NCBI GenBank assembly: GCA_051658085.1
Contig: JBOFLX010000030.1
Span: 32,952 to 96,951, forward strand
Reading direction: 5' to 3'
Length of the DNA stretch: 64,000 nucleotides
Source: Waterburya sp.
Lineage (GTDB): Bacteria; Cyanobacteriota; Cyanobacteriia; Cyanobacteriales; Xenococcaceae
The notes under the pieces: model-generated
Database searches by the model: none
Seen by the model: the letters and a program-made list of their open reading frames with translations, nothing else
Told to the model about the DNA's origin: nothing
In this document: piece by piece, positions 9,187-41,413 of the stretch
Layout of the letters: every line of letters begins with the position of its first letter
Position numbering within the stretch: the first letter of the stretch is position 1
Program-made: the position numbers and the translations under genes

Positions 9187-10230
9187 CTAAACTTTGGAGG
9201 CTCTTAATTGTCCACAAGCTGCATCTGCTTCTAAGCCACGGGAATAACGCACGCTGACAGCTATTTTTGCCTCTTCTAAAATGTTAGTAAATTCCCTGAT
9301 TCTATTTTTGTTTGGTCTTTGATAATCCACCTCAGAAATAGGATTATAGGGAATTAAATTGACGTGGGTTTGAAACCCTTTTAGATGTTGCACTAACTCC
9401 CGTGCATTGGCAGGTAAATCATTAACTCCTGCCAATAAAATATATTCAAAAGTTACTCTTCTACCAGTCACTTGCACATAATCGCGACATTCAGCCAGCA
9501 AATCATCTATGGTGTATTGTTTAGCACTCGGAATTAACTGTTTCCGCAAAGCCTGATTAGAAGCATGAAGACTTACTGCTAAGACAATCTGTAGTTGATG
9601 CTGGGCTAATTGCTGAATTTTACCAGGAATACCCACTGTAGATACGGTAAGCGATCGCGCGCCTATGCCGACATCTTGATTGAGAGATTTAACCGCAGCC
9701 ACCACTTCATTTAGGTTTGCCATCGGCTCTCCCATACCCATAAACACTACATTACTGACTCTCTGCCCAAAATCTTCCTGGACTGTAAGTACTTGATCGA
9801 TGATTTCAGCAGCTTTGAGGTTACGAGTGAATCCTCCTTTACCTGTAGCACAAAAATCACAATCCATCGGACAACCAACCTGAGAAGAAACACAGACAGT
9901 TAGACGTTTAGCGGTAGGAATACCTACAGTCTCAATAATTAAGCCATCGGTCAAACGTAATAAATATTTACGAGTCTCATCAGGAGCAACACTTCGATAG
10001 TGGATAGTCGAGCGTCCCAGAGGATAATCAGCCATTTCTTCCCGCCATTTTTTAGGAAATACAGAAATATCCAAGAGCGATCGCACCTCTTTTTGGTATA
10101 ACCATTGATGTAGTTGTTTACCTCTATAGGCTGGTTGTCCTTGCTCTTGCACCCACTGGGTTAACTCTTCTAAAGATTTACCTAACAAAAATTCCGAATT
10201 AGTTGATTGTGTAATTGTTGGGAGGGTCAT
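9187..10230 (-). CDS. rlmN: 23S rRNA (adenine2503-C2)-methyltransferase, radical SAM
   Basis: 347 aa; radical SAM cluster motif [20 protein letters not shown]-terminal Cys for methyl transfer. Confidence 0.9.
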
Positions 10231-10235
10231 GATAA

Positions 10236-10300
10236 TTTTATTGATTACTAATTACTGATCATAGGTGATTAGTGATTGGTCATTGGTGACAAGTTAAGAT
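10236..10300. repeat. STRR-like heptamer array (ATTACTA/GGTGATT variants) abutting MITE copy A
   Basis: attactaattactgatcataggtgattagtgattggtcattggtgac seen directly. Confidence 0.6.
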
Positions 10301-10389
10301 TCTGACTCCTGACTTCTGTACGTCGCCAAACTTACGGCTCCCCTACCTGACTCCTCTCTCAACTATTGATTTAAGTGCGTAACAGCTTA
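10290..10389 (+). mobile_element. MITE-like element copy A (partial, lacks one terminal repeat)
   Basis: core ctgactcctgacttctgtacgtcgccaaacttacggctcccctacctgactcc plus terminal atttaagtgcgtaacagctta shared with copies at 26307-26455, 29436-29597, 39886-40022. Confidence 0.7.
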
Positions 10390-10396
10390 TTGAAAA

Positions 10397-11140
10397 TCAA
10401 ATAAATAATAAAGGTTTATCTTTTAAAGGTGTAAAAGCTTGAGAATTGAAACGATATAAACTAGCAGGACGACCAGCACCACGACATACTTTAATATTTG
10501 TATCAGATAAAATACCTAGTTTTAATAAACGAGAACGGAAATTAGAATAGTCGGAAAAGTTTTCACCTAAAATTGTACAGTAAAGTTGATAAACTTCATT
10601 TAAAGTAAATTCTGAGGGTAAAACCTCAAAAGCGATCGGACTGTATTGTAGTTTATTTTTTAGTCGATTCCAGCCATATTTTAAAATTTGATCGTGGTCA
10701 AAAGCTAACTTTGGTACTTGATTTACTTTATACCAAGCAATGTTATCAATAGACTTAGTAATAATTTTGGCATCCTCATATCTTACTAAAGCAAAATAAC
10801 TAACAGATAAATATCTCACTCCAAAACTATTAGGATTTTCTCTCGGATCTCTACCAGGATCTCCAAAAGAATATAGCTGTTCTAGATATAAATTATCTAC
10901 CTTGATTTTTTCGGCTAAAGTACGATATGCAGCATCAGTTAAGGATTCTCCTTGGCGGACTAATGTACCTGGTAAACTCCAATAGTTTTTAAAAGGTTCT
11001 TCTTTTCTTTTATCTAGTAAAACTAATACTCGATTATAAGTAGTATCGACAGAAAAAATAACATTGTCTACTTCTACTTTAAAATCAGCTAAACTTTTAA
11101 CTTTATTGCCATCTGGTTGGCTAGTAAAATTAATTTTCAT
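10397..11140 (-). CDS. nrtR: Nudix-related transcriptional regulator NrtR (Nudix-like domain + C-terminal winged HTH)
   Basis: 247 aa; degenerate Nudix box GESLTDAAYRTLAEKIKV; C-terminal LAFDHDQIL...NFRSRLLKLGIL...GRPASLYRF resembles NrtR wHTH; co-oriented downstream of nadD and pncB. Confidence 0.55.
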   Translation of the reverse strand: MKINFTSQPDGNKVKSLADFKVEVDNVIFSVDTTYNRVLVLLDKRKEEPFKNYWSLPGTLVRQGESLTDAAYRTLAEKIKVDNLYLEQLYSFGDPGRDPRENPNSFGVRYLSVSYFALVRYEDAKIITKSIDNIAWYKVNQVPKLAFDHDQILKYGWNRLKNKLQYSPIAFEVLPSEFTLNEVYQLYCTILGENFSDYSNFRSRLLKLGILSDTNIKVCRGAGRPASLYRFNSQAFTPLKDKPLLFI

Positions 11141-13298: not shown

Positions 13299-14357
13299 AT
13301 GACTAAAACTCTCGACTATCAAGCCTTAGCTGAATGTTCCCTAGCAGGGGAGTTAATCGATCGCCCTACAGCCCAAAGCATTTTGTCAGCCCCTGATTTA
13401 GTATTACTGGAACAATTAGCAGCAGCTTATAAAATTCGACATCACTATTGGTCAAATCGGGTGAGATTACATTTCCTACTCAATGCCCAAAGTGGCTTAT
13501 GTCCTGAAGATTGTAACTATTGTTCTCAGTCCAAAATTTCTACTGCTGAGATTGAAAAATACCCCCTAATTGCCCAATCAAAGATTTTACAAGCAGCAGA
13601 GCGAGCAGCCAGCCTAAAAGCAGGCACGTTTTGTATGGCGATTTCAGGGCGATCGCCTTCCGAATCAGTATTTAATAGTGTGTTAGAAGCCTTTCAAACT
13701 GTTAAAGCCAAACACGATTTAAAAATCTGTGCATGTTTAGGGTTATTGAGCGAATCACAAACCGAGCGTCTAGCAGCAGTGGGAGTGGATCGAGTTAACC
13801 ATAATTTAAATACTTCCGAAAATCACCACGCTAATATCTGTAGCACTCACACCTTTCGCGATCGCGTTACCACTCTCAAAAACGTCCAAAAAGCAGGAAT
13901 TACTACCTGTTCAGGCGGTATTTTAGGGATGAATGAAACCGATGACGATATTATCGATCTAGCTTATTCTCTACGAGAGTTAGACGTTACCAGTGTGCCG
14001 ATTAATTTCTTAATTCCCATTGCTGGTACACCTTTAGCTGATATTAATCAACTTAATCCCCGTCGTTGTTTACGTATCTTATCCTTGTTTAGATTTATTC
14101 TCCCCAAACAAGAAATCAGAATTGCTGGAGGGAGAGAAGTTCATTTAAGATCTTTACAGGTTATGGGTTTATATCCTGCCAACTCAATTTTTGTCGGTGA
14201 TTACCTAACTACCGCAGGACAAGCAGCCCAAACCGATTTAGCAATGATTCGCGATGCTGGATTTGTTCTCGAAGCCCCCGATGGTTCAATTTTAGAAACA
14301 GAAACTCTACCAGAATTAAATGTGCAATTTAAACAGTCTGCATTATCTGGAGACTAA
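13299..14357 (+). CDS. bioB: biotin synthase (radical SAM)
   Basis: 352 aa; [11 protein letters not shown] CxxxCxxC motif, downstream Cys ligands for 2Fe-2S cluster. Confidence 0.8.
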
Positions 14358-14384
14358 GCTGTTACGCACTTAAATCAATAATAG
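14356..14384. repeat. solo terminal-inverted-repeat fragment of the MITE family (aagctgttacgcacttaaatcaataat)
   Basis: 29 bp identical to the terminus of copies B/A; overlaps the TAA stop codon of bioB. Confidence 0.6.
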
Positions 14385-14488
14385 AGTGTAATCTATCTAA
14401 AAAATACCTGAATTTTACCTCTTTTCCTTGCTTGGCAACCGTACAATACTGGTTAATAAAATTGAAGCTGTGACGGTGCAAAAGGAAG

Positions 14489-14938
14489 ATGAACGAACAT
14501 TGCATGATTCCTATAATGAAAACACCTAGAGATTATCAAGCTTATCGGATTAGTCCTAAAGATAGTAATCGTCTAGCAATCATTTTTGATCCCAATATTG
14601 CCAATGACTCCTTAACTGTCTGCGTAGAAATTTATGATGTTGGTGGTGCAACTCCTCACAATCGTCATGATTTTGCTGTCGAGATGTTTTTTATTCTTAA
14701 AGGGGAAGGTATAGCAGTCTGTGATGGTAAAGAAATTCCTTTTCATAGTGGAGATAGCATTTTAATCCCCAAAACAGGCACTCATTATCTAAAAAATACA
14801 GGTTCCGAACGTTTATATACTTTATGTATGATGGTTCCTAATGAAAACTTTTCGGAGTTGATCCGTAGCGGTACACCTGTAACTTTAGATGAACAAGATT
14901 TACAAGTTTTATCTCGTGTCAGTAACAATTTAGATTAA
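14489..14938 (+). CDS. cupin domain protein
   Basis: 149 aa; HxH...E...H-like metal site (HNRHDFAVEMFF, GTHY) in beta-barrel context. Confidence 0.55.
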   Translation: MNEHCMIPIMKTPRDYQAYRISPKDSNRLAIIFDPNIANDSLTVCVEIYDVGGATPHNRHDFAVEMFFILKGEGIAVCDGKEIPFHSGDSILIPKTGTHYLKNTGSERLYTLCMMVPNENFSELIRSGTPVTLDEQDLQVLSRVSNNLD

Positions 14939-17808
14939 TAACTAATACCTGTGTTACACACATTATTACCTTTTGGCTGTGATGGAGAACTATTAGATTT
15001 ATGAGCAACTAATTCTACAATACCGCGATCGTTAACTATCCATCCCTGAGCCTCGACAATTTCTGCCTTTTTTTCTATGGAGGCGTTTTGCACACTACTA
15101 CTACTACCTTCATCTGCCCCTAAACTTGTGGGTTCGACCAAATCAACCTCACTCATTTCTCCCTCTCGCGCTTGATTAGGACTCGGTGCAATTCCCCCTT
15201 TACCCGTCACAATAAATTCACTTCCCTGTCCTTGTTGACAGAAATTTTGCTCTACTAATCCTGCTACATCGATTATTTCTACGGGTAATTCTTCTAATCC
15301 TTCTGTAGGGTTAACATCAAGTTCGTTAATATTGACTGTTCCATCTAAACCAAAGTTGGAAGAAGCATCCAGATCATTAGTATTGTTTATGGGTGTAGAA
15401 CCTCTTTCTTCAATACCAAAGATGGCATTAGTGAAAAGCTCGATATTACCTCCATTTCCTTGGGCAGCAGAAGCAACAATATCGTTATTTTGGTTAGGAA
15501 AAGCAATAACAAAATTAGCGTCTATATTTATATTGCCACCATCAGCATTTTTCAGTGCTTGAGCAGAAATTGTACTGCTATTTCGTAAGCTCAAATTATC
15601 AGCAATTTGTAGAGTAATATTGCCACCTGTATTGCCTGCTATTCCATTTCCTTGATTGGTGGCATTGATTAAAGCATTGTCGCTAATAGACAAGTTTCGT
15701 GTCGAGATCTTGATATTACCGCCAGAACCTGTAGAATTAGCATCTGTATTAGCGAATATACCACTAGCAGCACCTTCATTGCGCACAATTGGTCTACCTA
15801 TTCGCGCTAATCTTTCAGGGAAAGTAGGATCGCTGCCAGTGATTGTAGTGTTTTCAGTTGTATTGATTGAAATATTACCTGCATCACCGCTACCACGACT
15901 GGTTGTGAGAATTTGTCCGCCACCCTGAACTTGCAAGGTGTTAACGTCTAGGTTGATGTCCCCACCCCTTCCTTGCCCACTAGTGCTAGCACCTATAACA
16001 GCCCCATTTTCAACCGTTAAAGAATTGGCTGTAATTTTTATCTCTCTGCCGTTGCCATTAGAGCCTGCTTCCACCGTGCTAAAAGCACTACTAGAATAAC
16101 CATTTGTACCAGTGCCATTAAAGGAAACTGCACCAGTAGCATTAATTGTCACGCTGCCTGCGTCTTTTGCTACAAAATTACTAACCAAGAGTGTTGCACC
16201 ATTGGTAACATTGAGCGAGTCAGTATTGATCACAATCGCTCCACCATTTCCACTCGCTAACTCAAAAGCTGCACTACCTATACCACTTGAGCCATTGCTT
16301 CCTGCTCCGTCCAAGAAAACTTCCTTGGCATTAACTGTTATATCGCCAGCATTTCCTTGAGCATTGGTATGAGCAACTATCGTAGCACCATTTAATAAAG
16401 ACAGTTTGGGTGCATTAATAGCAATTGTGCCACCGTTACCAACAGCATCAGCAAACACTTGGCTACCAATACCACTGTTTGTATCGCTTATTAAAACATT
16501 ATCACTGGCACTAATTGCTATACTGCCTGCATTTCCGCGCCCAACACTATGAGAAACTATGGTAGCACCGTCTAGTAAAGATACCTTTGGTGCATTAATA
16601 GCAATTTGACCACCGCTACCAGTCCCAAATAGACTGGCTGAGATAACGGTTTCTTCACTATTACCTGCACCATCATAAGAAAACGTATCGCTAGCATTAA
16701 TTATGATGTTACCTGTATTTCCCTGTCCAAAGCTGTTGCCAGAAATTATGGCACCGTTATTTAAAAAAAGCGATCGCCCTGTCATCTCAACATTGCCACC
16801 ATTACCAATTCCTTGTTCGTATACTTCATTAGCAATTGTGCTGTTATCTAGGGTAATATTCCCACTAGCATTTAAGGTGATATCTTCAGCTTGTATCCCT
16901 GAGAATTGGAAATTTGCATCGATACCCGCCTGAATATTACTACCAGAGAGAATATCAATATTATTGGCGTTTATGGCAATACTGCCTTGTCCATTACCAT
17001 TGACTGCCAGGTTAGTAGTATCTGTGAGACTAATATTCTGAAAATTTGTAACGTCTTGATAATCCAATAACCAGCCAGTATTTGCCGACGTGAGATTAAC
17101 TAAACTATTCTCGGCAACGCTACCCAATTCTATCCGTCCACTAGTAGTTTTTAGGGTTGCGCCTTTTAAATTAATATCTCCACCCACTAAGGCTAAGGTT
17201 TGATCTGGTTGCACCTGTAAATTAGCTTCTGTATCAGTAATACTAGACTCGCTCGCTTGTTGACCATTTCCTTGTACTTGAATCGAACTAGAATTTGCTC
17301 CAAATTGTAAACCGATAGGGATATTAATAGATAACAAGGGTGTATTTTGAGGATTTTTTGCACTAAATTCACTACCATCGGCAAATTGTAAACTCTCAGC
17401 AGATGTACCAAGAAAAGAACCACCTATATTTAATTGGGCATTTTCACCAAATACAATTCCATTGGGATTCATTAAAAATAGATTGGCTGCACCATTAGCC
17501 TTAATTAAACCATCAATATTAGAAATTGCACCACCTGTAACTCGGCTGATAATGTTTTGAATATCTACGCTGTTGTTAAAAAATGCTTCTGAGCCTGTAG
17601 GGACTGAAAAATCTTGAAAACTGTGAAATAAATTGCTACCTGCTTGAGTTCCACCCGTAATAATTCTAGTATTCTCCTCTAATCTAACATTGGAATTATT
17701 TGGCAGAGTTGCATCTGGGGTAATTTGGGCTACTGAATTATTAGCGTAAAAAGCGATCGCGCCTGTGATGGCAATGTTTAAAGTCTTTAACCAGTTCAAA
17801 TGCATCAT
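14935..17808 (-). CDS. filamentous-haemagglutinin N-terminal (TPS/haemagg_act) domain exoprotein, beta-helical repeat protein
   Basis: 957 aa; signal peptide, then NTRIITGGTQAGSNLFHSFQDFSV...ANLFLMNPNGIVFG (TPS secretion domain NPNG motif), long G/N/S-rich beta-helix repeats, conserved C-terminal FIVTGKGGIAPSP motif. Confidence 0.8.
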   Translation of the reverse strand: MMHLNWLKTLNIAITGAIAFYANNSVAQITPDATLPNNSNVRLEENTRIITGGTQAGSNLFHSFQDFSVPTGSEAFFNNSVDIQNIISRVTGGAISNIDGLIKANGAANLFLMNPNGIVFGENAQLNIGGSFLGTSAESLQFADGSEFSAKNPQNTPLLSINIPIGLQFGANSSSIQVQGNGQQASESSITDTEANLQVQPDQTLALVGGDINLKGATLKTTSGRIELGSVAENSLVNLTSANTGWLLDYQDVTNFQNISLTDTTNLAVNGNGQGSIAINANNIDILSGSNIQAGIDANFQFSGIQAEDITLNASGNITLDNSTIANEVYEQGIGNGGNVEMTGRSLFLNNGAIISGNSFGQGNTGNIIINASDTFSYDGAGNSEETVISASLFGTGSGGQIAINAPKVSLLDGATIVSHSVGRGNAGSIAISASDNVLISDTNSGIGSQVFADAVGNGGTIAINAPKLSLLNGATIVAHTNAQGNAGDITVNAKEVFLDGAGSNGSSGIGSAAFELASGNGGAIVINTDSLNVTNGATLLVSNFVAKDAGSVTINATGAVSFNGTGTNGYSSSAFSTVEAGSNGNGREIKITANSLTVENGAVIGASTSGQGRGGDINLDVNTLQVQGGGQILTTSRGSGDAGNISINTTENTTITGSDPTFPERLARIGRPIVRNEGAASGIFANTDANSTGSGGNIKISTRNLSISDNALINATNQGNGIAGNTGGNITLQIADNLSLRNSSTISAQALKNADGGNINIDANFVIAFPNQNNDIVASAAQGNGGNIELFTNAIFGIEERGSTPINNTNDLDASSNFGLDGTVNINELDVNPTEGLEELPVEIIDVAGLVEQNFCQQGQGSEFIVTGKGGIAPSPNQAREGEMSEVDLVEPTSLGADEGSSSSVQNASIEKKAEIVEAQGWIVNDRGIVELVAHKSNSSPSQPKGNNVCNTGISY

Positions 17809-17840
17809 CCTGAACCCATGTTTACTTAAATATTAAAAGC

Positions 17841-17900
17841 GAAAAGTGAATCATTTAGATCGCACCTGAACAAATACCCGAATTTTTCCCCTGTAAATCT
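17841..17900. promoter_or_regulatory. conserved ~60-bp motif (copy 1) in divergent intergenic region between the two TPS-exoprotein genes
   Basis: gaaaagtgaatcatttagatcgcacctgaacaaatacccgaatttttcccctgtaaat; ~88 percent identical second copy at 20563-20626. Confidence 0.4.
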
Positions 17901-17934
17901 TATTTAGTAAATTACAGAATGTTAACAAACCCTA

Positions 17935-20541
17935 TTGAGGAGTATAGATTTGAAACGACGCTTTTCTCTATCCTGGTTTTTTGCTATTTGTCTGGCTACA
18001 AGTTTACTTCCAAGCAATTCTGCTTCAGCCCAGGTTACTTCAGATGGCACGACTGGAACTGTAGTTGATGCTAATGGCAATAGTTTTGAAATTAATGCAG
18101 GTACTAGAAGCGGAGACAATCTGTTTCATAGTTTTGAAGAATTTTCAGTCCCTAACGGTGGAGAAGCAGTTTTCAATAACGCTGTAGATATCAGTAATAT
18201 CTTGTCTAGGGTTACAGGGGGAGAGATTTCTAATATCGATGGTTTAATTGAGGCACAGGGCGGTGCTAATCTATTTTTGATCAACCCTGCTGGGATTATT
18301 TTTGGTCAAGGTGCAAGTTTATCTATTGGTGGTTCGTTTTATGGTAGTACTGCGGATAGTATTGTGTTTGAAGATGGGGAATTTAGCGCAGTCAATAATT
18401 TAAATCAACCAATACTGACTATTAACGCTCCCATTGGTTTGAATTTGAGAGATAATCCTAATGGTATTGCTGTCAATGGTAATAACAATGGTACAGAACC
18501 TGCTGATTTTTCTGCACTATCTGTACTCGAAGATCAAAGTCTCTATTTGATTGGTGGCAACATCGAGCTGAACAATGCAACATTATCAGCACTTGAGGGC
18601 AATATAACATTGGGAGGCTTACAGACTTCGGGAACTGTTGATATTAATGAAAATGGCAACTTAAATTTTCCTGAAAACTTGGCTAGAGGAAATATCTCTT
18701 TAGATAATTCTAGTGTTTCTCTTGGTTTTGGCAGCAATAATGGTGAAGGTGGGACTATTAATCTTAATGGCAATAATATAGAGTTGCTGAATAATAGTAT
18801 GCTAATGAACAGTATAGATGCTAATTCTGGTTCTACCGAAGCTCAAGCAGGAAATATTAACCTTAATGCGACTGAAACAATAAATTTAAGTGGAAGAAGC
18901 GTTATACGAAATCTAGTCGAGAGTGGCTCAGAGGGGAATAGTGGTAATTTAGAACCAGGAGCAATAAGCAATGGTGGTAATGTAGATATTACAACAGCTA
19001 ATCTTTCTATTGACAATGGCGCATCTATTAGTGCTGGTACTTTGGGCGAGGGAGATGGCGGAGATGTCACAATTAATGCGACTGAATCAATCACTCTTGA
19101 TGGTACAACTCCTGATGGTCAATTTCGCAGTGTAATTACCAGTCAAGTAGAATCAGGAGCAACAGGCAATGGTGGTAATGTAGATATTACAACAGCTAAT
19201 CTTTCTATTGACAATGGCGCATTTATTAGTGCTGGTACTTTGGGAGAGGGAGATGGCGGAAATGTTTTAATTAATGCGACTGACTCAATCACTCTTGATG
19301 GTACAACTCCTGATGGTCAATTTCGTAGTGTAATTGCTAGTCAAGTAGAATCAGGAGCAATAGCCAATGGTGGTAATATAGATGTTACAACAGCTAATCT
19401 TTCTATTGACAATGGCGCATTTATTAGTGCTGGTACTTTGGGAGAGGGAGATGGCGGAGATGTCACAATTAATGCGACTGAATTAATCACTCTTGATGGT
19501 ACAACTCCTGATGGTCAATTTCGCAGTGTAATTGCCAGTCAAGTAGAATCAGGAGCAATAGGCAATGGTGGTAATGTAGATATTACAACAGCTAATCTCT
19601 CTCTTGACAATGGCGCATTTATTAGTGCTAGTACTTTGGGAGAGGGAGATGGCGGAAATGTTTTAATTAATGCTGAAAAATTAATCACTCTTAATGGTAG
19701 AACTCCTGATGGTCAATTTCCCAGTGTAATTGCTAGTGAGGTAAACCAGGAAGCAATAGGCAATGGTGGTAGTGTTGAGATTACAACAGCTAATCTCTCT
19801 CTTGACAATGGCGCAGCAATTAGTACTAGTACTGTCGGAGAGGGAAATGGTGGAGATTTAACTTTCAATATAGGCGATCGCTTGACTCTAGAAGAAAACA
19901 GTGATATTTCAGCAGAAGTTATTGGAACTAATGCCAATGGAGGCGACATAACTATCAATGCTGAAAATGGTTTTGTAGTTGCTTTTCCCAATCAAAATGA
20001 AGGTAATGGCAGCGATTTTATTACTAGATCTCCAGAAGGTAAAGGTGGAAATATTGAGATGAATGCTCAAGGGGTTTTGGGTTTAGAAGAAGGGAATGCT
20101 AATCTTGCTAACAATATCAACAATATTGATGCTAGTGGAACTGTTGATGGTGTGGTAAAGATTAATACTCCTAATTCAGATGCAATTGAAGGAACAACTC
20201 AACTACCTAATAATCCTGTAGAAGCTGGAGAAACTGTTACTCAAGCTTGTGTTTCTGGTCAGGGTGTTGATGGTAATAATCTGATAGTTAGTGGTAAAGG
20301 TGGCATACCTCGTCAACCTATTGAACCGTTAGTTGCCGATTCAATTTATGTTAACGGTCAGACAATACAATCAACATCTCCTCAGCCAGAAGCTATTAAA
20401 CCAATAAAAACTAGTAAAGGTGATATTATTCCTGCCCAGGGAGTCGATATTACAAAAGATGGAAGGGTTATTCTAACAGCCTATCCCACTAGTAATAATT
20501 CTAGAACTCCAAAAACATCCACTAATTGCGGTAAATCATGA
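17935..20541 (+). CDS. filamentous-haemagglutinin N-terminal (TPS/haemagg_act) domain exoprotein with internal 66-aa tandem repeats
   Basis: 868 aa; signal peptide, GDNLFHSFEEFSV...ANLFLINPAGIIFG TPS domain, five 66-aa repeats, C-terminal LIVSGKGGIPRQP motif shared with the upstream paralogue. Confidence 0.8.
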   Translation: MRSIDLKRRFSLSWFFAICLATSLLPSNSASAQVTSDGTTGTVVDANGNSFEINAGTRSGDNLFHSFEEFSVPNGGEAVFNNAVDISNILSRVTGGEISNIDGLIEAQGGANLFLINPAGIIFGQGASLSIGGSFYGSTADSIVFEDGEFSAVNNLNQPILTINAPIGLNLRDNPNGIAVNGNNNGTEPADFSALSVLEDQSLYLIGGNIELNNATLSALEGNITLGGLQTSGTVDINENGNLNFPENLARGNISLDNSSVSLGFGSNNGEGGTINLNGNNIELLNNSMLMNSIDANSGSTEAQAGNINLNATETINLSGRSVIRNLVESGSEGNSGNLEPGAISNGGNVDITTANLSIDNGASISAGTLGEGDGGDVTINATESITLDGTTPDGQFRSVITSQVESGATGNGGNVDITTANLSIDNGAFISAGTLGEGDGGNVLINATDSITLDGTTPDGQFRSVIASQVESGAIANGGNIDVTTANLSIDNGAFISAGTLGEGDGGDVTINATELITLDGTTPDGQFRSVIASQVESGAIGNGGNVDITTANLSLDNGAFISASTLGEGDGGNVLINAEKLITLNGRTPDGQFPSVIASEVNQEAIGNGGSVEITTANLSLDNGAAISTSTVGEGNGGDLTFNIGDRLTLEENSDISAEVIGTNANGGDITINAENGFVVAFPNQNEGNGSDFITRSPEGKGGNIEMNAQGVLGLEEGNANLANNINNIDASGTVDGVVKINTPNSDAIEGTTQLPNNPVEAGETVTQACVSGQGVDGNNLIVSGKGGIPRQPIEPLVADSIYVNGQTIQSTSPQPEAIKPIKTSKGDIIPAQGVDITKDGRVILTAYPTSNNSRTPKTSTNCGKS
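18970..19960 (+). repeat. intragenic tandem repeat, 5 units of 198 bp (66 aa), central units nearly identical
   Basis: unit starts at 18970, 19168, 19366, 19564, 19762 (aatggtggtaatgtagatattacaacagctaatct...). Confidence 0.8.
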
Positions 20542-21371: not shown

Positions 21372-21619
21372 TTGAATGCGTAATTACTGATTAACCAAGC
21401 TGCTATCATGGCTGAGTATGAGGGTCAAAAGTAAAAAATTTGAATTCTAAATTTAGAATTCAGAAAAAAAGTAGGTATACAAATTTATTACCTATTACTT
21501 ATTACTTTTATCGGTGTTGCATAGCTACGGGATGATTTAAAACAATTAGGTTTAATAAAAGCTATAAGCTATAAGCGATCTTGTTATAAGCTAATCGCTT
21601 TAAAACAGGTTGAATTCTC

Positions 21620-21674
21620 CCAGTCTCTTAGTCTCCTAATCCCCCAGTCCCCTAGTCTCTCAGTCCCCCAGTCG
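21620..21674. repeat. STRR-like heptamer array (CCCCAGT/CTCTTAG variants)
   Basis: cagtctcttagtctcctaatcccccagtcccctagtctctcagtcccccagtc. Confidence 0.6.
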
Positions 21675-21762
21675 ACCTAAGCCACCCTATAATGATGCAA
21701 CGCCCTTTTATCCCTCAGATTATTCCGCATAACTAGCAACTTACGCTATTAAGTGTTCGAGA

Positions 21763-26273: not shown

Positions 26274-26306
26274 GAAATAGATAGGAAAATGTCTTGTTAA
26301 CTTATT

Positions 26307-26455
26307 AAGCTGTTACGCACTTAAATCAATAATTGAGAGAGTAGACAGGAGTCAGGTAGGGGAGCCGTAAGTTTGGCGACGTACAGGAGTCATAACCAGG
26401 GTTTATAGCCTAATTTACTAACAAAACAATACACAATTTAAATGCGCTTTAGCTT
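26307..26455 (-). mobile_element. MITE-like element copy B (~149 bp, imperfect ~20-bp terminal inverted repeats)
   Basis: taagctgttacgcacttaaat ... core gagtcaggtaggggagccgtaagtttggcgacgtacaggagtca ... atttaaatgcgctttagctta; sits between two genes of the island. Confidence 0.7.
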
Positions 26456-26573
26456 ATTCGATCTAAGATTAATTTATATAGTAATTACTATAGGAAAAAT
26501 TCAGGTATTTTTTCAGGTATTTATAAAATAAGCGAATAAAGTTTTATTGTAGTCAAGCTTTATTTCTGCGGAT

Positions 26574-29138: not shown

Positions 29139-29429
29139 ATGAAAACCCAAGATCAACCTATTGCGATTTCTGGACAATGGTGCTTAGTAACAGTAAGCCA
29201 GTGGAAACGTGAATCTTTTTTAAAATATCTAAATAATGACATTGAAAAAAAACAATTACAAAATGTAATTTTAGAGATTATTGCTCTAGAAGAATCTGTT
29301 TACGAAAATATGGTTTTGCTTCGTATCAGTAATTATTCTGAAGCTAGAACTCATTTGCAACAAATAGACCATTTTCAAAATATTCAAAGATTAAAACCTA
29401 ATGAAGTAAGTCGGATGTTGAATAAATAA
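29139..29429 (+). CDS. hypothetical small protein
   Basis: 96 aa ORF; MITE copy C starts 6 bp after its stop codon. Confidence 0.3.
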   Translation: MKTQDQPIAISGQWCLVTVSQWKRESFLKYLNNDIEKKQLQNVILEIIALEESVYENMVLLRISNYSEARTHLQQIDHFQNIQRLKPNEVSRMLNK

Positions 29430-29435
29430 GTAATT

Positions 29436-29597
29436 AAGCTGTTACGCATTTAAGTTACTGGTTAAGAAAGGAGTCAGAAGTCAGGAGTCAGGTAGGGGAG
29501 CCGTAAGTTTGGCGACGTACAGGAGTCAGGAGTCAAGATAAGGGTTTCAACCTAATTTTTTAAGAGAATAGTATGCAATTTAAATGCGCTTTAGCTT
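29436..29597 (-). mobile_element. MITE-like element copy C (~162 bp, both terminal inverted repeats present)
   Basis: aagctgttacgcatttaag...gagtcaggtaggggagccgtaagtttggcgacgtacag...caatttaaatgcgctttagctt; full reverse-complement match to copy D. Confidence 0.75.
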
Positions 29598-29694
29598 AAT
29601 AAACAAAGTATGTATTTTAAGCAAATAATTTAACACGATTATTGTTTAAGGGCGATCGCGCTTATTTACCTTTAGTACATCAAGTTAAAGTCAA

Positions 29695-31119: not shown

Positions 31120-31216
31120 TAGGCTTTTTTTTGGTTATTATTACTATTTACTAGGATAGTTTGTTTGATTTCAGGCGATCGCAAAATCAGAAAATTAATT
31201 TTGAGTAATTAGTTAC

Positions 31217-32785
31217 TTATGTTGGTCGATTAATCCGAATTAATTCGGTCAAAATACTATCCAAACTACCATTAACTTGAAGATGTTCAATCTTTTCAGC
31301 AATTCGCTCTAATACCTCTAATTCTTTCATTCGCAAGGCGATCGGATTATCCTCCATGACTTTGGCAGTATTCAACATACTACGGGTAGCTGCGGTTTCT
31401 TCTCTGCGTCTGACGACGTTTGCTTGAGCAGTTTTTTCTGCTTCTACTACCTTGCTTAAGATGGCTTTAATCTCACCTGGTAAAATAATATCCTTTACCC
31501 CCACAGAATCTACTTCCATACCATAATCTGCGGTTTTGGTGCGAATGTATTCAGCTACAGAGCGATCAATCGCCCCTTTATTTTCTAATAAAGCATCTAA
31601 AGTTTGTTCGCCCACGGCTGCGCGTAAAGCAAACTGTAACTCTTTGTATAAATAACCAGAAACATCTGACAAACTGTTTTTAGCTCTTAGTGGCTCTAGA
31701 ATACGAAAACCAGCTGTCAAATTTAAGCGTAGAGGAACTTTATCTTTTGAGAGAATATCTTGACCCGATATTTCAATATTTTGCAAACGCAAGTCAAAGA
31801 CCTCTGTACTAAAAGAACGTCCAAACAACCACCAAGCGTGTCGTCCTGGCTGAAGTTGAGATTGAAACTCTTGATTTATGTATAATAAGCCCACGTGCTG
31901 TGCAGGTACTTCACAAATATGTAAACTATTGTGACTCAGTAAAAGAACTTCTTGAGAACCTGAAAGCAATTCGGAAACTAAATTAGGAGATAATTTAGCC
32001 TCACTAGCGATCGCGATAACTTCCACTTCAACATCTCGCCAAAACAATTTACGGCTGGTAGGTGGCAAAATAGCAATAACTTTTCCCAAATAGCGGATAA
32101 CTGCTACTTGTTGGCTATTTAATTGTACAATTTCGCAGTACTGGGCTACAAAGTCAGGATGTTTTTCAATTAATATATCTTCGAGGGGAAAATCAGGGTT
32201 AGGTATAATACGGCTAAGAGTTCGCACCGCCACATTGCGATTTACATCCCAAAAGGCATATTCTCCTGATTCAAGAGGGCGAACAAAATTATTTTGAATA
32301 TATAGTAGACCGATTTCGGATTCTGAGATTTGGAATTTTTTTAGTCCATTTAAGTTAATTCCACGTAATTGCTGAACAAACTCAACTGGTAATTCTAAAC
32401 TTGATTCTAAGTTAAAAAGATAAGATTCTACCTCAATAAAACCACGCCAAAAAGCACGCAATTGATTTGGTTCAACGCTTACCCAATTTTGACCACAACG
32501 TACTAAAGAAACTTGATCAAAACCTGTTCGGACAATTAATAAATATTCCTCTAATTCCGTTGCATGGATTCTTAACAACAATTCTAAATTGTCAATTTGA
32601 GCTTCTGGATAGTTGCGATCGCAAGTTACAACTTGCCAATGGCAACCAAAATAAGTGTAAGTTCCTGGTTGTAAAATCTTTTTAAAATCACTGCGATGAT
32701 ATAAAATTCCAATCTCGTTTGGCTTGATATAAAAATTTTTCCACATAGAAATTTTAGAAATTTGTAGAGATAACTTGGGCAACAT
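31217..32785 (-). CDS. SPFH/band-7 domain protein with triplicated N-terminal beta-sandwich repeats
   Basis: 522 aa; three repeats (IGILYHRS..LQPGTYTYF / IGLLYIQNNF..LESGEYAFW / VGLLYINQEF..LQPGRHAWW) then SPFH helical region. Confidence 0.6.
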   Translation of the reverse strand: MLPKLSLQISKISMWKNFYIKPNEIGILYHRSDFKKILQPGTYTYFGCHWQVVTCDRNYPEAQIDNLELLLRIHATELEEYLLIVRTGFDQVSLVRCGQNWVSVEPNQLRAFWRGFIEVESYLFNLESSLELPVEFVQQLRGINLNGLKKFQISESEIGLLYIQNNFVRPLESGEYAFWDVNRNVAVRTLSRIIPNPDFPLEDILIEKHPDFVAQYCEIVQLNSQQVAVIRYLGKVIAILPPTSRKLFWRDVEVEVIAIASEAKLSPNLVSELLSGSQEVLLLSHNSLHICEVPAQHVGLLYINQEFQSQLQPGRHAWWLFGRSFSTEVFDLRLQNIEISGQDILSKDKVPLRLNLTAGFRILEPLRAKNSLSDVSGYLYKELQFALRAAVGEQTLDALLENKGAIDRSVAEYIRTKTADYGMEVDSVGVKDIILPGEIKAILSKVVEAEKTAQANVVRRREETAATRSMLNTAKVMEDNPIALRMKELEVLERIAEKIEHLQVNGSLDSILTELIRINRPT

Positions 32786-32820: not shown

Positions 32821-33239
32821 TTTAAATATTTTTTTACTCTGTCAATACAGGGTTTACAATTCCAATGCGGGCAGAAGCTTCTCCAAAACTGGATTAAGAA
32901 TAGATGTAATTTACTTAAAACTACACCCAAGAATTTAATTTAGGAGTTTCCTCCGTTCATTGCCTTCTTGAGCGATCATTTAAAAGCAATAAAACAGCCT
33001 TCAAATATGGCGTTCAGTTTACTGTCTCCAGAATCTCAGTAGAGAAAAGGATCTGGCAAACGAAGGACATACTCAAGTTAGGGAGAGATACAGTTGCTCT
33101 AGCTTCGTAACTGCTAAAAACACCCGTATGACAGAGTAACTACAAAACCAAATTAAATTTTGACAATCAAACCTTTCGATTCTACTATCAAGTTGCTTTG
33201 TCCCTAACAAAGTGCCTTTTACCCCAGGCTAGGGTTTTG

Positions 33240-33312
33240 TGAAAAGTACAGGAATCGAACCTATTACCAATCGATTATGAGTCGTTCGCTCTACCAATTG
33301 AGCTAACTTTTG
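33240..33312 (-). tRNA. tRNA-like gene with CAT anticodon (Met/Ile2-type) carrying C1xC72 and A28xA42 mismatches; possible pseudogene
   Basis: hand-folded reverse complement: CAAAAGT-TA-GCTC-AATTGGTA-GAGC-G-AACGA-CTCATAA-TCGAT-TGGTA-ATAGG-TTCGATT-CCTGT-ACTTTTC-A. Confidence 0.5.
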
Positions 33313-33314
33313 GG

Positions 33315-33387
33315 AGTTTGATACAGGATTTGAACCTATGACAGATCGACGATACACCGATCCGCTCTACCACTGAGCTAATCAAAC
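33315..33387 (-). tRNA. tRNA-like gene with atypical 9-nt anticodon loop (GTGTATCGT); isotype undetermined, possible pseudogene
   Basis: hand-folded: GTTTGAT-TA-GCTC-AGTGGTA-GAGC-G-GATCG-GTGTATCGT-CGATC-TGTC-ATAGG-TTCAAAT-CCTGT-ATCAAAC-T; perfect acceptor, D and T arms; lies 2 nt from the other tRNA-like gene. Confidence 0.45.
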
Positions 33388-33539
33388 GATGAAATAGTAT
33401 TCAAGTACTCGGTGGTATACACTCATACTAGAAGCAGGCGCACCAGTTAGGTATACAGAACCTAAACTATAACTTTGTAATCTCAATTACTAAATCTTAT
33501 CTAGAGTAACATAGAGGAATCTAAATTGTATTTTTGTTT

Positions 33540-34117
33540 AATTCGTTCTACCGATTTTAGGAATTCTCGACCTTTTTCGGGATTAATCATGGCTACGTAA
33601 TTAGCAAAACCAGCGATCGCAGCCATTAAATTCGGTGAATTTCCCCATTTTTTGCCAGATAATCCTTTTTAATAGTACAAATTAACCCAAGAAGTGTCGC
33701 TACTGCTTCTGAATATCCCAAACTAAGAAATAATTCTTGAACGTGTTTGTAGGAGATTGATTGGAAAAAATTTTGTAAATCAAGTTTAATGATTATATCT
33801 GCGCCGACATGGGGTTGAGCATTAGTGATGATCGAGCGATCGCGACGAAACCCGTGTGCTGCCTCGTGTACTTCTAGCTTATGCAAAATATTCTTGAGAA
33901 TATATATTTGAGCAGCCTTAAGATATGGCATTGGTGCATAAATTGTTCTTTGTTCGCCCGTCTTTTTGGAAATTTGAAAGCGAAAATAATGAATAAGAGG
34001 AAAGGTAAGCGGTTTAAAAGCTAACCAACGTAGTTGTTCGACACTGATATTCATTAATAAGGCTAATTCTGCTTCAGTGTTATATATTGGTAGTCTTTTG
34101 GAGGACAATGTTGTCAC
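33540..34117 (-). pseudogene. retron-type reverse transcriptase remnant (truncated after RT motif 2, similarity continues out of frame)
   Basis: 163-aa ORF YFRFQISKKTGEQRTIYAPMPYLKAAQIYILKNIL...AHGF...LDLQNFFQSI matches retron/Abi-type RT N-terminal motifs; catalytic YxDD region absent in frame; hand translation of reverse complement 33540-33625 gives an RT-like continuation in another frame. Confidence 0.55.
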
Positions 34118-39699: not shown

Positions 39700-39885
39700 C
39701 CGTAAACAGTATTTACCTGAGTTTGATATTTTTTGGTTGTCATAAAGATGAACTTGTTGCAGTTTACACTTTATATTTAACAAAAACCAAGTAAGGTAGA
39801 CAAACGTTAAAAATCAGAAACTATCCAATAGACCTAGCTTGAAAATAAACAAGAAAAGAAAATGAAACTAACTCTAAGCTAAAGC

Positions 39886-40022
39886 ACATTTAAATTGCAT
39901 ACTATTCTCTTAAAAAATCAGGTTAAAACCCTTATCTTGACTCCTGACTTCTGTACGTCGCCAAACTTACGGCTCCCCTACCTGACTCCTGACTCAACCA
40001 GTAACTTAAATGCGTAACAGCT
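39886..40022 (+). mobile_element. MITE-like element copy D (~137 bp, both termini)
   Basis: aagctaaagcacatttaaattgcat...ctgactcctgacttctgtacgtcgccaaacttacggctcccctacctgactcc...cttaaatgcgtaacagctta. Confidence 0.75.
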
Positions 40023-40196
40023 TACTATAATTTCCAGCAAGATATAAAGTTTTGCTGAATTAGTTAGTTAATTATTTGCCAGCATGATAAAAGAATAGAT
40101 GTTATTGGCAATTTCTTAACTTAAGACTATTTGTAAATTAACTTTGTATGGGCAAGTTAGTTTGATGAATAATCACTACGTAATTGAGAACTAATT

Positions 40197-41192: not shown

Positions 41193-41230
41193 ATAAGCTA
41201 AGTAAACTGTTAATAATTTAATTTACTTGT

Positions 41231-41280
41231 TATGAATGACTGGGAGACTGAGCGACTTGGAGACTGGGAGAGAGTTTAAG
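41231..41280. repeat. heptamer-like array (GACTGGG/GAGACTG)
   Basis: atgaatgactgggagactgagcgacttggagactgggagagag. Confidence 0.5.
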
Positions 41281-41413
41281 TGACCATACCAAGCAAAACT
41301 CATGAAAATATTGGAAATAATTAATAGCACAATGGGTTTTAGCATTATTAAAGAGCAAAAACATGAATAAAACTATAAAATTACCAAGTGAAATCTTATA
41401 AAATAACATAATT

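Follow-up and report, generated by a model that had tools for sequence, protein, structure and literature searches.

Which kind of element occupies the intergenic DNA of this Waterburya locus, and how it came to lie there, is the question raised by a set of short, closely similar sequences in a 64,000-nucleotide stretch of DNA, referred to here as the window. A sequence-only reading of the window had taken these repeats for a novel MITE-like family with imperfect terminal inverted repeats (TIRs) and a conserved GC-rich core, which might fold into a hairpin and serve as a terminator or small RNA. We evaluated this proposal by comparison of the copies among themselves, with sister genomes, with metagenome, plasmid and viral sequences, and with the systems described in the literature.

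The window has a G+C content of 36.9% and contains HIP1 sites. Its contig, from a Waterburya sp. MAG, carries the proteins MGL5940085 to MGL5940111; the Band_7 protein of the window is 100% identical to MGL5940102.1, and nine more window proteins are on record from this contig. Because its next relatives, ranked by DNA identity, are other Waterburya MAGs (about 96%), a sister species (88-89%) and Chondrocystis NIES-4102 (85%), the host is a Pleurocapsales cyanobacterium. A Pfam scan of all 45 open reading frames (ORFs) of at least 150 aa, and of several smaller ones, returned housekeeping or signalling genes. As a separate observation, a truncated reverse-transcriptase gene is found at 33239-34117 (minus strand), in the form of a 163-aa ORF that matches RVT_1 weakly and a 41-aa ORF. 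It lies immediately upstream of the Band_7 gene and of two tRNA genes in tandem, tRNA-Met(CAT) and tRNA-Ile(TAT). At the equivalent position in Chondrocystis NIES-4102 (locus L130, 8342-9295), the RVT_1 gene is intact and encodes 317 aa. A tRNA-Ile with the anticodon TAT is unusual in bacteria.

Repeat copies in the window and their anatomy

Five copies, A to E, were delimited in the window. Their coordinates, which count the terminal TA in, are as follows.

Copy B, 26306-26456, plus strand: complete 151-bp element (TA + AGCT…AGCT + TA), subfamily 1.
Copy C, 29435-29598, plus strand: complete 164-bp element, subfamily 2.
Copy D, 39875-40024, minus strand: complete 150-bp element, subfamily 2.
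Copy A, 10303-10389, minus strand: 87 bp, truncated, right arm missing.
Copy E, 14355-14386, plus strand: solo left end of 32 nt, 31/32 identical to copy B.

All five copies start with TAAGCTGTTACGCAYTTAA, which occurs five times in the 64-kb window without a mismatch, against 0.09 occurrences expected from shuffles. The right end, TAAGCTAAAGCGCATTTAAAT (reverse complement), occurs three times against 0.01 expected, and a 31-nt core, GTAGGGGAGCCGTAAGTTTGGCGACGTACAG, four times without a mismatch against 0 expected. A relaxed scan of the same 64 kb returned no further copies. Thus, the four copies and the solo end that had been listed from the sequence alone all exist, as three complete copies, one truncated copy and one solo end, and the common termini and the conserved core claimed for them recur far above the shuffles. 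Their coordinates had been given to within 1-2 nt, with the exception of the left boundary of copy D, which at 39886 was 11 nt short. The boundaries, whose consistency had been named beforehand as a point on which the family would stand or fall, are uniform, each end reading TA|AGCT.

The complete copies are 150-164 bp long, and no listed ORF overlaps any of them. Their layout comprises a TIR, a tandem GGAGTCA heptamer array split by the 31-nt GC-rich core, an AT-rich right arm and the second TIR. The TIRs form an imperfect pair of about 20 bp (AGCTGTTACGCAYTTAA… / …TTTAAATGCGCTTTAGCT), such that a complete copy closes with an imperfect inverted copy of TAAGCTGTTACGCAYTTAA; inside one copy the two ends agree at 16-17 of 22 positions (16/22 in copy B and 17/22 in copy C). 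The direct sub-repeat previously said to frame the core does flank it, but is really the tandem GGAGTCA array, interrupted by the core. A size below 600 bp, multiple copies, noncoding sequence and TIRs, by which MITEs are recognized, are all found in the window copies.

The interior of copy B had been seen to differ from that of C and D, and an oriented alignment does resolve two subfamilies, namely, (A, B, E) and (C, D). Copies C and D have no substitutions in their aligned left arms, agree at 72 of 76 positions (95%) in the right arm, and share an ungapped 120-nt stretch of 97% identity, whereas between B and C the arms are mismatched at 16% of the positions that align and have indels as well. 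Copy A retains the left TIR, the subterminal region, the heptamers and the core, and its right arm has been swapped for an unrelated heptamer array of the TGACCAA/TCACTAA type. Copies A and E would be decayed remnants.

All copies are intergenic, and their distances to start and stop codons agree with the earlier remark that they lie near gene ends. The first three bases of copy E are the TAA stop codon of bioB; copy C starts 5 nt past the stop codon of an ORF at 29139-29429; and copy A, whose neighbours are an nrtR-like gene and rlmN, ends 7 nt past a stop codon. Copy B has two minus-strand neighbours and lies upstream of one of them, a CHASE2/AAA_35 gene whose start is 33 nt away, while copy D is flanked by a DUF3747/SLH gene and an sbtA-like gene. 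The orientation to neighbouring genes is mixed, with A, C and E in sense and B and D in antisense.

Filled and empty sites in sister genomes

The site of copy C is empty, with a single TA (GTTTAT-TA-ATTACTT), in the Waterburya MAG GCA_051657825.1. The contig compared, JBOFLK010001212 of the sister Waterburya MAG (L139), covers the Band_7 gene, the RPE65 gene and the ORF beside copy C, and its DNA identity with the window is 95.6-96% on either side of the copy. At this position L139 reads …ACTTTGTTTAT-TA-ATTACTTATT…, and the window reads …ACTTTGTTTAT-TA-AGCTAAAGC…(160 nt)…AACAGCT-TA-ATTACTTATT…, so that the gap between them is exactly 162 nt, which equals the element plus one extra TA. Both a target-site duplication, with TA on either side, and a filled/empty polymorphism are therefore found at copy C. 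In this comparison of two genomes, copy C either was inserted recently and precisely, with duplication of the TA, or was lost precisely from L139. It is the one copy with a clean empty site.

A further 82 nt adjoining copy C (window 29610-29691) are absent from L139 as well, with a 5-nt alignment ambiguity. A 5-nt direct repeat, AAAGT (plus strand), borders it on both sides, and within it are a HIP1 site and, at 29650-29663, a terminator-like hairpin. Either a second small insertion in the window or a deletion by microhomology in L139 could account for the difference.

A sibling element, which begins TAAGCTGTCAGGTATTTAATTTG… and continues with GACGGGGT heptamers, was found in a third Waterburya genome (GCA_051660945.1, contig L008, 1625-1717). 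It is inserted at a TA located 4 nt past the stop codon of the Band_7 gene, and the corresponding site is empty in both the window (31205-31220) and L139. The L008 contig, 1.7 kb long, stops inside this sibling element, which illustrates the fragmentation of short-read MAGs by repeats; MITE repeats of this kind would explain why the short-read MAGs of the Waterburya group break into contigs of 1-8 kb. Copy E is also present in GCA_051660945.1 and is therefore old.

For the other copies the comparison is less tidy. The region of copy A (window 10248-10397) is replaced by 12 nt (ATAACAGCAGTT) in the sister contig L142, and that of copy D (window 39805-40037) by 23 nt in the sister contig L141. 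Copies A and D are thus absent from those sister genomes, and the indels involved are larger and untidy, rather than clean empty sites. The TAACAGC kept in the 12-nt stretch of L142 is possibly a TIR remnant. In about 60 kb of the sister species at 88-89% identity there is no copy, and the orthologous regions differ in synteny.

A degenerate relative of the sibling element (TAAGCTAAGTAAACTGTTAATAATTTAATTTAC…, followed by GACTGGGA heptamers) was also noticed in the window at 41193-41290, directly past the stop codon of the sbtA-like gene. Since synteny with L141 ends at 41204, a rearrangement breakpoint coincides with the end of this degenerate element.

Terminal repeats across cyanobacteria and the search for a transposase

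The 19-nt left end was found in at least 120 metagenome stretches among the matches listed. Three of the matches (L026, L055 and L117) are 23S rRNA-like and were set aside as unrelated, and almost all the others are elements of 82-245 bp that end in …AGCTTA with a matching inverted repeat. At least 65 distinct complete elements could be recognized among the matches listed (82-245 bp, median 127), and their right ends have the consensus TAAGCTgaTncGCattTAAA. First, these 65 elements have no direct repeat beyond the TA, as 5 of 65 agree at k=2 against 4.1 expected, and their flanks have a weak, palindromic preference, T(G/A)A|TA|T(C/T)A. Second, clustering of their interiors gives at least 26 unrelated groups among the matches listed, with types that include heptamer arrays (CTGATGA, TTCCCTG and GGAGCTG) and long hairpins (GTAGGGTGCGTCAGC…GCTGACGCACCCTAC). 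Third, the density of HIP1 in these metagenome loci is 0.64 per kb, or 42 times random, which indicates that the loci are cyanobacterial. An all-against-all search among them returned no filled/empty pairs.

The same 19-nt end is present on plasmids of Microchaete/Tolypothrix PCC 7601, Allocoleopsis PCC 7113, several Nostoc, Anabaena, Stanieria, Planktothrix, Gloeothece PCC 7822 and PCC 7424, Oscillatoria PCC 7112, Crinalium and Calothrix, where it is always unannotated. Neither the whole window element nor its core had a match in plasmids, and the TIR and the core had 0 matches in 2.9 million viral contigs. Nostocales, Oscillatoriales, Chroococcales and Pleurocapsales thus share an end of about 20 bp that is the same down to the nucleotide and encloses dozens of unrelated interiors. 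The breadth of this TIR superfamily and the TA duplication are well-supported additions to what had been read from the window.

The window interior occurs in none of the sampled superfamily elements and, since the sister species has no copy either, the window family appears to be a lineage-specific interior variant. The description of the family as novel therefore holds for its interior, but not for its terminal 19-20 nt, which are common to a large and diverse cyanobacterial set. The TIR and core strings had no match in the literature searched, and accordingly no published name is attached to the superfamily.

The TIRs, the TA duplication, the presence/absence polymorphism and a strict conservation limited to the terminal 20 bp or so are direct observations. 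Based on these results, we consider it highly probable that the window repeats are copies of a TA-inserting MITE, whose ends are mobilized in trans and whose interior is a lineage-specific one within the TIR superfamily. The initial MITE interpretation is borne out in this respect, by the TIRs and by the empty site with TA duplication at copy C. The element would be a non-autonomous DNA transposon of about 150-165 bp that encodes nothing, and that inserts at a TA dinucleotide and duplicates it, as seen at copy C. Its transposase would be supplied in trans and would recognize the terminal 20 bp or so only. Such recognition of the ends may explain why the same ends surround unrelated interiors across cyanobacterial orders. 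The enzyme would most probably be a DDE transposase of the IS630/Tc1-mariner type, an assignment made from the TA duplication alone. Duplication of TA is known for this class.

Indeed, MITEs of the IS630/Tc1-mariner type are likewise short, TIR-bounded and non-coding elements that insert at TA and duplicate it. ISY100 of Synechocystis PCC 6803, a member of the IS630 family, inserts almost exclusively at TA, which it duplicates, and its requirement in cis is limited to some 24-30 bp at either end (PMC2170065). Such a requirement fits identical ends around unrelated interiors. By this analogy, the window element would work like an IS630-type MITE. It differs in that no IS630-family element with the window ends was found, and in that the ends of ISY100 (TAGTAGTTTCAAATAAAGCTGAGA), the sole IS630 ends compared, are unrelated in sequence to the window TIRs. 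A comparison by description can also be made with the type II MITEs of Anabaena sp. 90, of which there are 147 copies of 77-541 bp and for which there is no IS with matching inverted repeats (PMC3542288). They share with the window family a cyanobacterial host, an intergenic location, a similar size, a fold by inverted repeats and the lack of a cognate IS, and differ in their Nostocales host and in the TA duplication seen in the window family.

A cognate transposase with matching TIRs, for which a search had been proposed, was found neither in the window nor in about 1.1 Mb of loci. In the window, no autonomous element is present and no ORF of at least 150 aa has a transposase domain. In the 1.1 Mb of loci, no TIR pair 0.6-4 kb apart encloses a transposase, and phmmer with an Oscillatoria IS630 fragment detected no IS630-like ORFs. 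Likewise, there is no transposase in 40 kb of a copy-rich Gloeothece plasmid, and no partner transposase was seen beside the at least 120 sampled ends. Three kinds of candidates for a parent IS were rejected: TIR pairs 3.5-3.9 kb apart (L098, L106 and L126), which enclose ordinary genes; ORFs next to solo ends, which encode kinases, porins, Uma2 and similar proteins; and a TIR-like match on an Oscillatoria plasmid, which has 4 mismatches, falls within the reading frame that encodes an IS630 transposase fragment and was judged a coincidence. Identification of the partner transposase would reveal a major driver of genome plasticity in cyanobacteria.

The 31-nt core and alternative readings

Apart from its oddly invariant 31-base core, the window family is mostly an ordinary kind of element. 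As a lineage-specific MITE subfamily it is worth masking and annotating in Waterburya genomes, which by itself would be a routine annotation result. The core is located as follows.

Core, 29492-29522, plus strand: in copy C.
Core, 26356-26386, plus strand: in copy B.
Core, 10316-10346, minus strand: in copy A.
Core, 39951-39981, minus strand: in copy D.

In every case the core is flanked on both sides by heptamers of the GGAGTCA type. One alternative to a core that is simply part of the MITE is that these 27-31 nt are a separate tiny mobile or copy-pasted element, SDR-like, which entered pre-existing MITE subfamilies secondarily. We judge this unlikely, although it deserves to be weighed in some detail. 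All 31 positions are identical in the four copies while 16% of the positions in the B and C arms differ, and the probability of 31 identical positions is about 0.005. Moreover, the core sits within the GGAGTCA array, whose heptamer is found to its left and to its right. Among 185,579 species genomes, the exact core 21-mer had one match, in a Microcoleaceae MAG (L001), where the central 27 nt are identical and stand beside GAGGCAA heptamers in otherwise unrelated DNA devoid of TIRs. This core copy belongs to a GC-rich non-coding stretch (L001 3380-3720, minus strand) upstream of a 151-aa ORF. Short repeats of the sequences GAGGCAA and GAGTCTT occur in this stretch, as does a TCCCACGCC…GGCGTTGGGA hairpin, and it has no Rfam match. 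About 2 kb from the core, the locus also holds a TIR-superfamily element of the ordinary sort, 89 bp long.

A further point in favour is that nested changes of comparable size are found in other superfamily lineages. In one of them (L072, L064, L097 and L034), the elements measure 103, 128, 152 and 171 bp, each step of the series corresponding to a nested indel in the central hairpin (25, 24 and 19 nt). A Gloeothece copy has a hairpin of about 40 nt that interrupts a GGGTGTA array, though its automated alignment is not clean. Against secondary entry, no core-less copy of the window subfamily was found, the core has neither a target duplication nor defined ends, and its known contexts are two. 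An equally simple origin of the same mosaic would be that subfamilies recombined with each other, or that the core is under selection.

The comparison that suggests itself is with the small dispersed repeats, SDR1-8, which Elhai et al. in 2008 (Genome Res 18:1484) reportedly described from Nostoc punctiforme and its relatives, and which are said to be 21-27 nt long and nested in heptamer arrays and minitransposons. Outside Nostocaceae, SDR-like repeats are stated not to have been found (PMC5861425). As described, SDRs share with the window family a short GC-rich unit (27-31 nt in our core) with a small hairpin, placed in a heptamer array inside a minitransposon, and the stepwise nested insertions seen in elements related to the window family. 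They differ, by description, in a length of 21-27 nt and in being reported from Nostocaceae only; for the core, moreover, no empty site was found. By analogy, then, the core appears to resemble the nested small dispersed repeats of Nostocaceae.

It is tempting to go further and to regard the core, TAGGGGAGCCGTAAGTTTGGCGACGTA, as a micro-element of the SDR type that spreads independently, targets heptamer arrays, and has reached two MITE subfamilies as well as Microcoleaceae; we hold this to be rather doubtful. If true, the poorly understood 'smallest mobile elements' of the SDR type would extend beyond Nostocaceae, and the TAAGCTGTTACGCATTTAAA-ended MITE superfamily would be the common carrier that accumulates nested insertions across cyanobacteria. 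In any case, the heptamer arrays and the stepwise nested inserts of 19-31 nt offer concrete cases on which ideas about the spread of very small repeats can be tested; this spread has, to our knowledge, been an open question since 2008. A different identity for the core, as domain V of a group II intron (GAGCCGTA…ACGTAC), was discarded, as the core lacks the 3' partner GGTTC for pairing and Rfam gives no match.

A second alternative is that the elements, or the core, are selected cis-regulatory or RNA elements, such as a terminator, an attenuator or a small RNA, whose transposon-like ends are incidental. This we consider very improbable. The RNA-fold check that had been proposed was run, and it gave for the core a weak hairpin with G·U pairs, of -9.7 kcal/mol (z -2.3), on one strand only. 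The G-rich strand of the 71-nt core region does fold better than its shuffles (z -4.95), but the C-rich strand is unfolded (z -0.7). The whole element folds through its TIRs at -42.7 kcal/mol (z -3.0), and this hairpin, together with the invariance of the core and the position of the copies near gene ends, would be in keeping with a functional RNA. However, Rfam returned nothing at the copies, at the gathering score or even at E<=10, and its matches at gathering score in the window were two tRNAs only; as for the known structured RNA family that might have explained the similarity, no Rfam family accounts for the repeats. Neither a terminator-like nor a promoter-like site occurs inside B or C, with regional totals at the shuffle level. 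The mixed orientation to genes also speaks against such a function, as does the fact that a genome of 96% identity, in which the genes are the same, lacks copy C. Co-option of a stable GC-rich hairpin as terminator or small RNA, as put forward from sequence inspection, is therefore an unsupported suggestion.

The family Nezha was reportedly described by Zhou et al. in 2008. That the window element is a member of it, mobilized by ISNpu3-like elements, is scarcely credible: Nezha, a MITE of Anabaena variabilis and Nostoc PCC 7120 with filled/empty site evidence, is alike in size (about 130-170 bp), cyanobacterial host, TIRs and stable fold (PMC3184786), but its reference copy has a 10-bp direct repeat, CATTATCTAC (PMC6042816), whereas the window elements and the 65 others have TA only, it is linked to ISNpu3 and to Nostocales whereas the window host belongs to Pleurocapsales, and no copy of the window element was seen in the Nostoc PCC 7120-type and Trichormus variabilis loci, of which about 21 kb apiece were covered. 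Set apart by description, and by the single criterion of a 10-bp direct repeat versus TA, the element is not Nezha.

The MITE reading leaves the heptamers of the window to be described in their own right. Besides the GGAGTCA arrays within the copies, several tandem heptamer arrays are located in its intergenic DNA.

Heptamer array, 10230-10300, intergenic: TGACCAA/TCACTAA type.
Heptamer array, 21610-21680, intergenic: CCCCAGT/CTCCCAG type, STRR1-like.
Heptamer array, 41238-41271, intergenic: GACTGGGA type.

Short tandemly repeated heptamers, STRR, were reportedly described by Mazel et al. in 1990 from heterocystous cyanobacteria. The arrays of the window, including the CCCCAGT-like and TGACCAA-like ones, are similarly made of tandem 7-nt units in intergenic DNA. 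They occur in a non-heterocystous host of the Pleurocapsales, and the GGAGTCA array differs further from STRR in being part of a TIR-bounded mobile element.

Repeats of another kind are associated with two large divergent genes with TPS (two-partner secretion) domains at 14935-20541. The second of these genes contains four tandem repeats of 198 nt (18950-19843), which share 86-96% identity. The divergent starts of the two genes (17375-18377) are straddled by inverted repeats 167 and 75 nt long.
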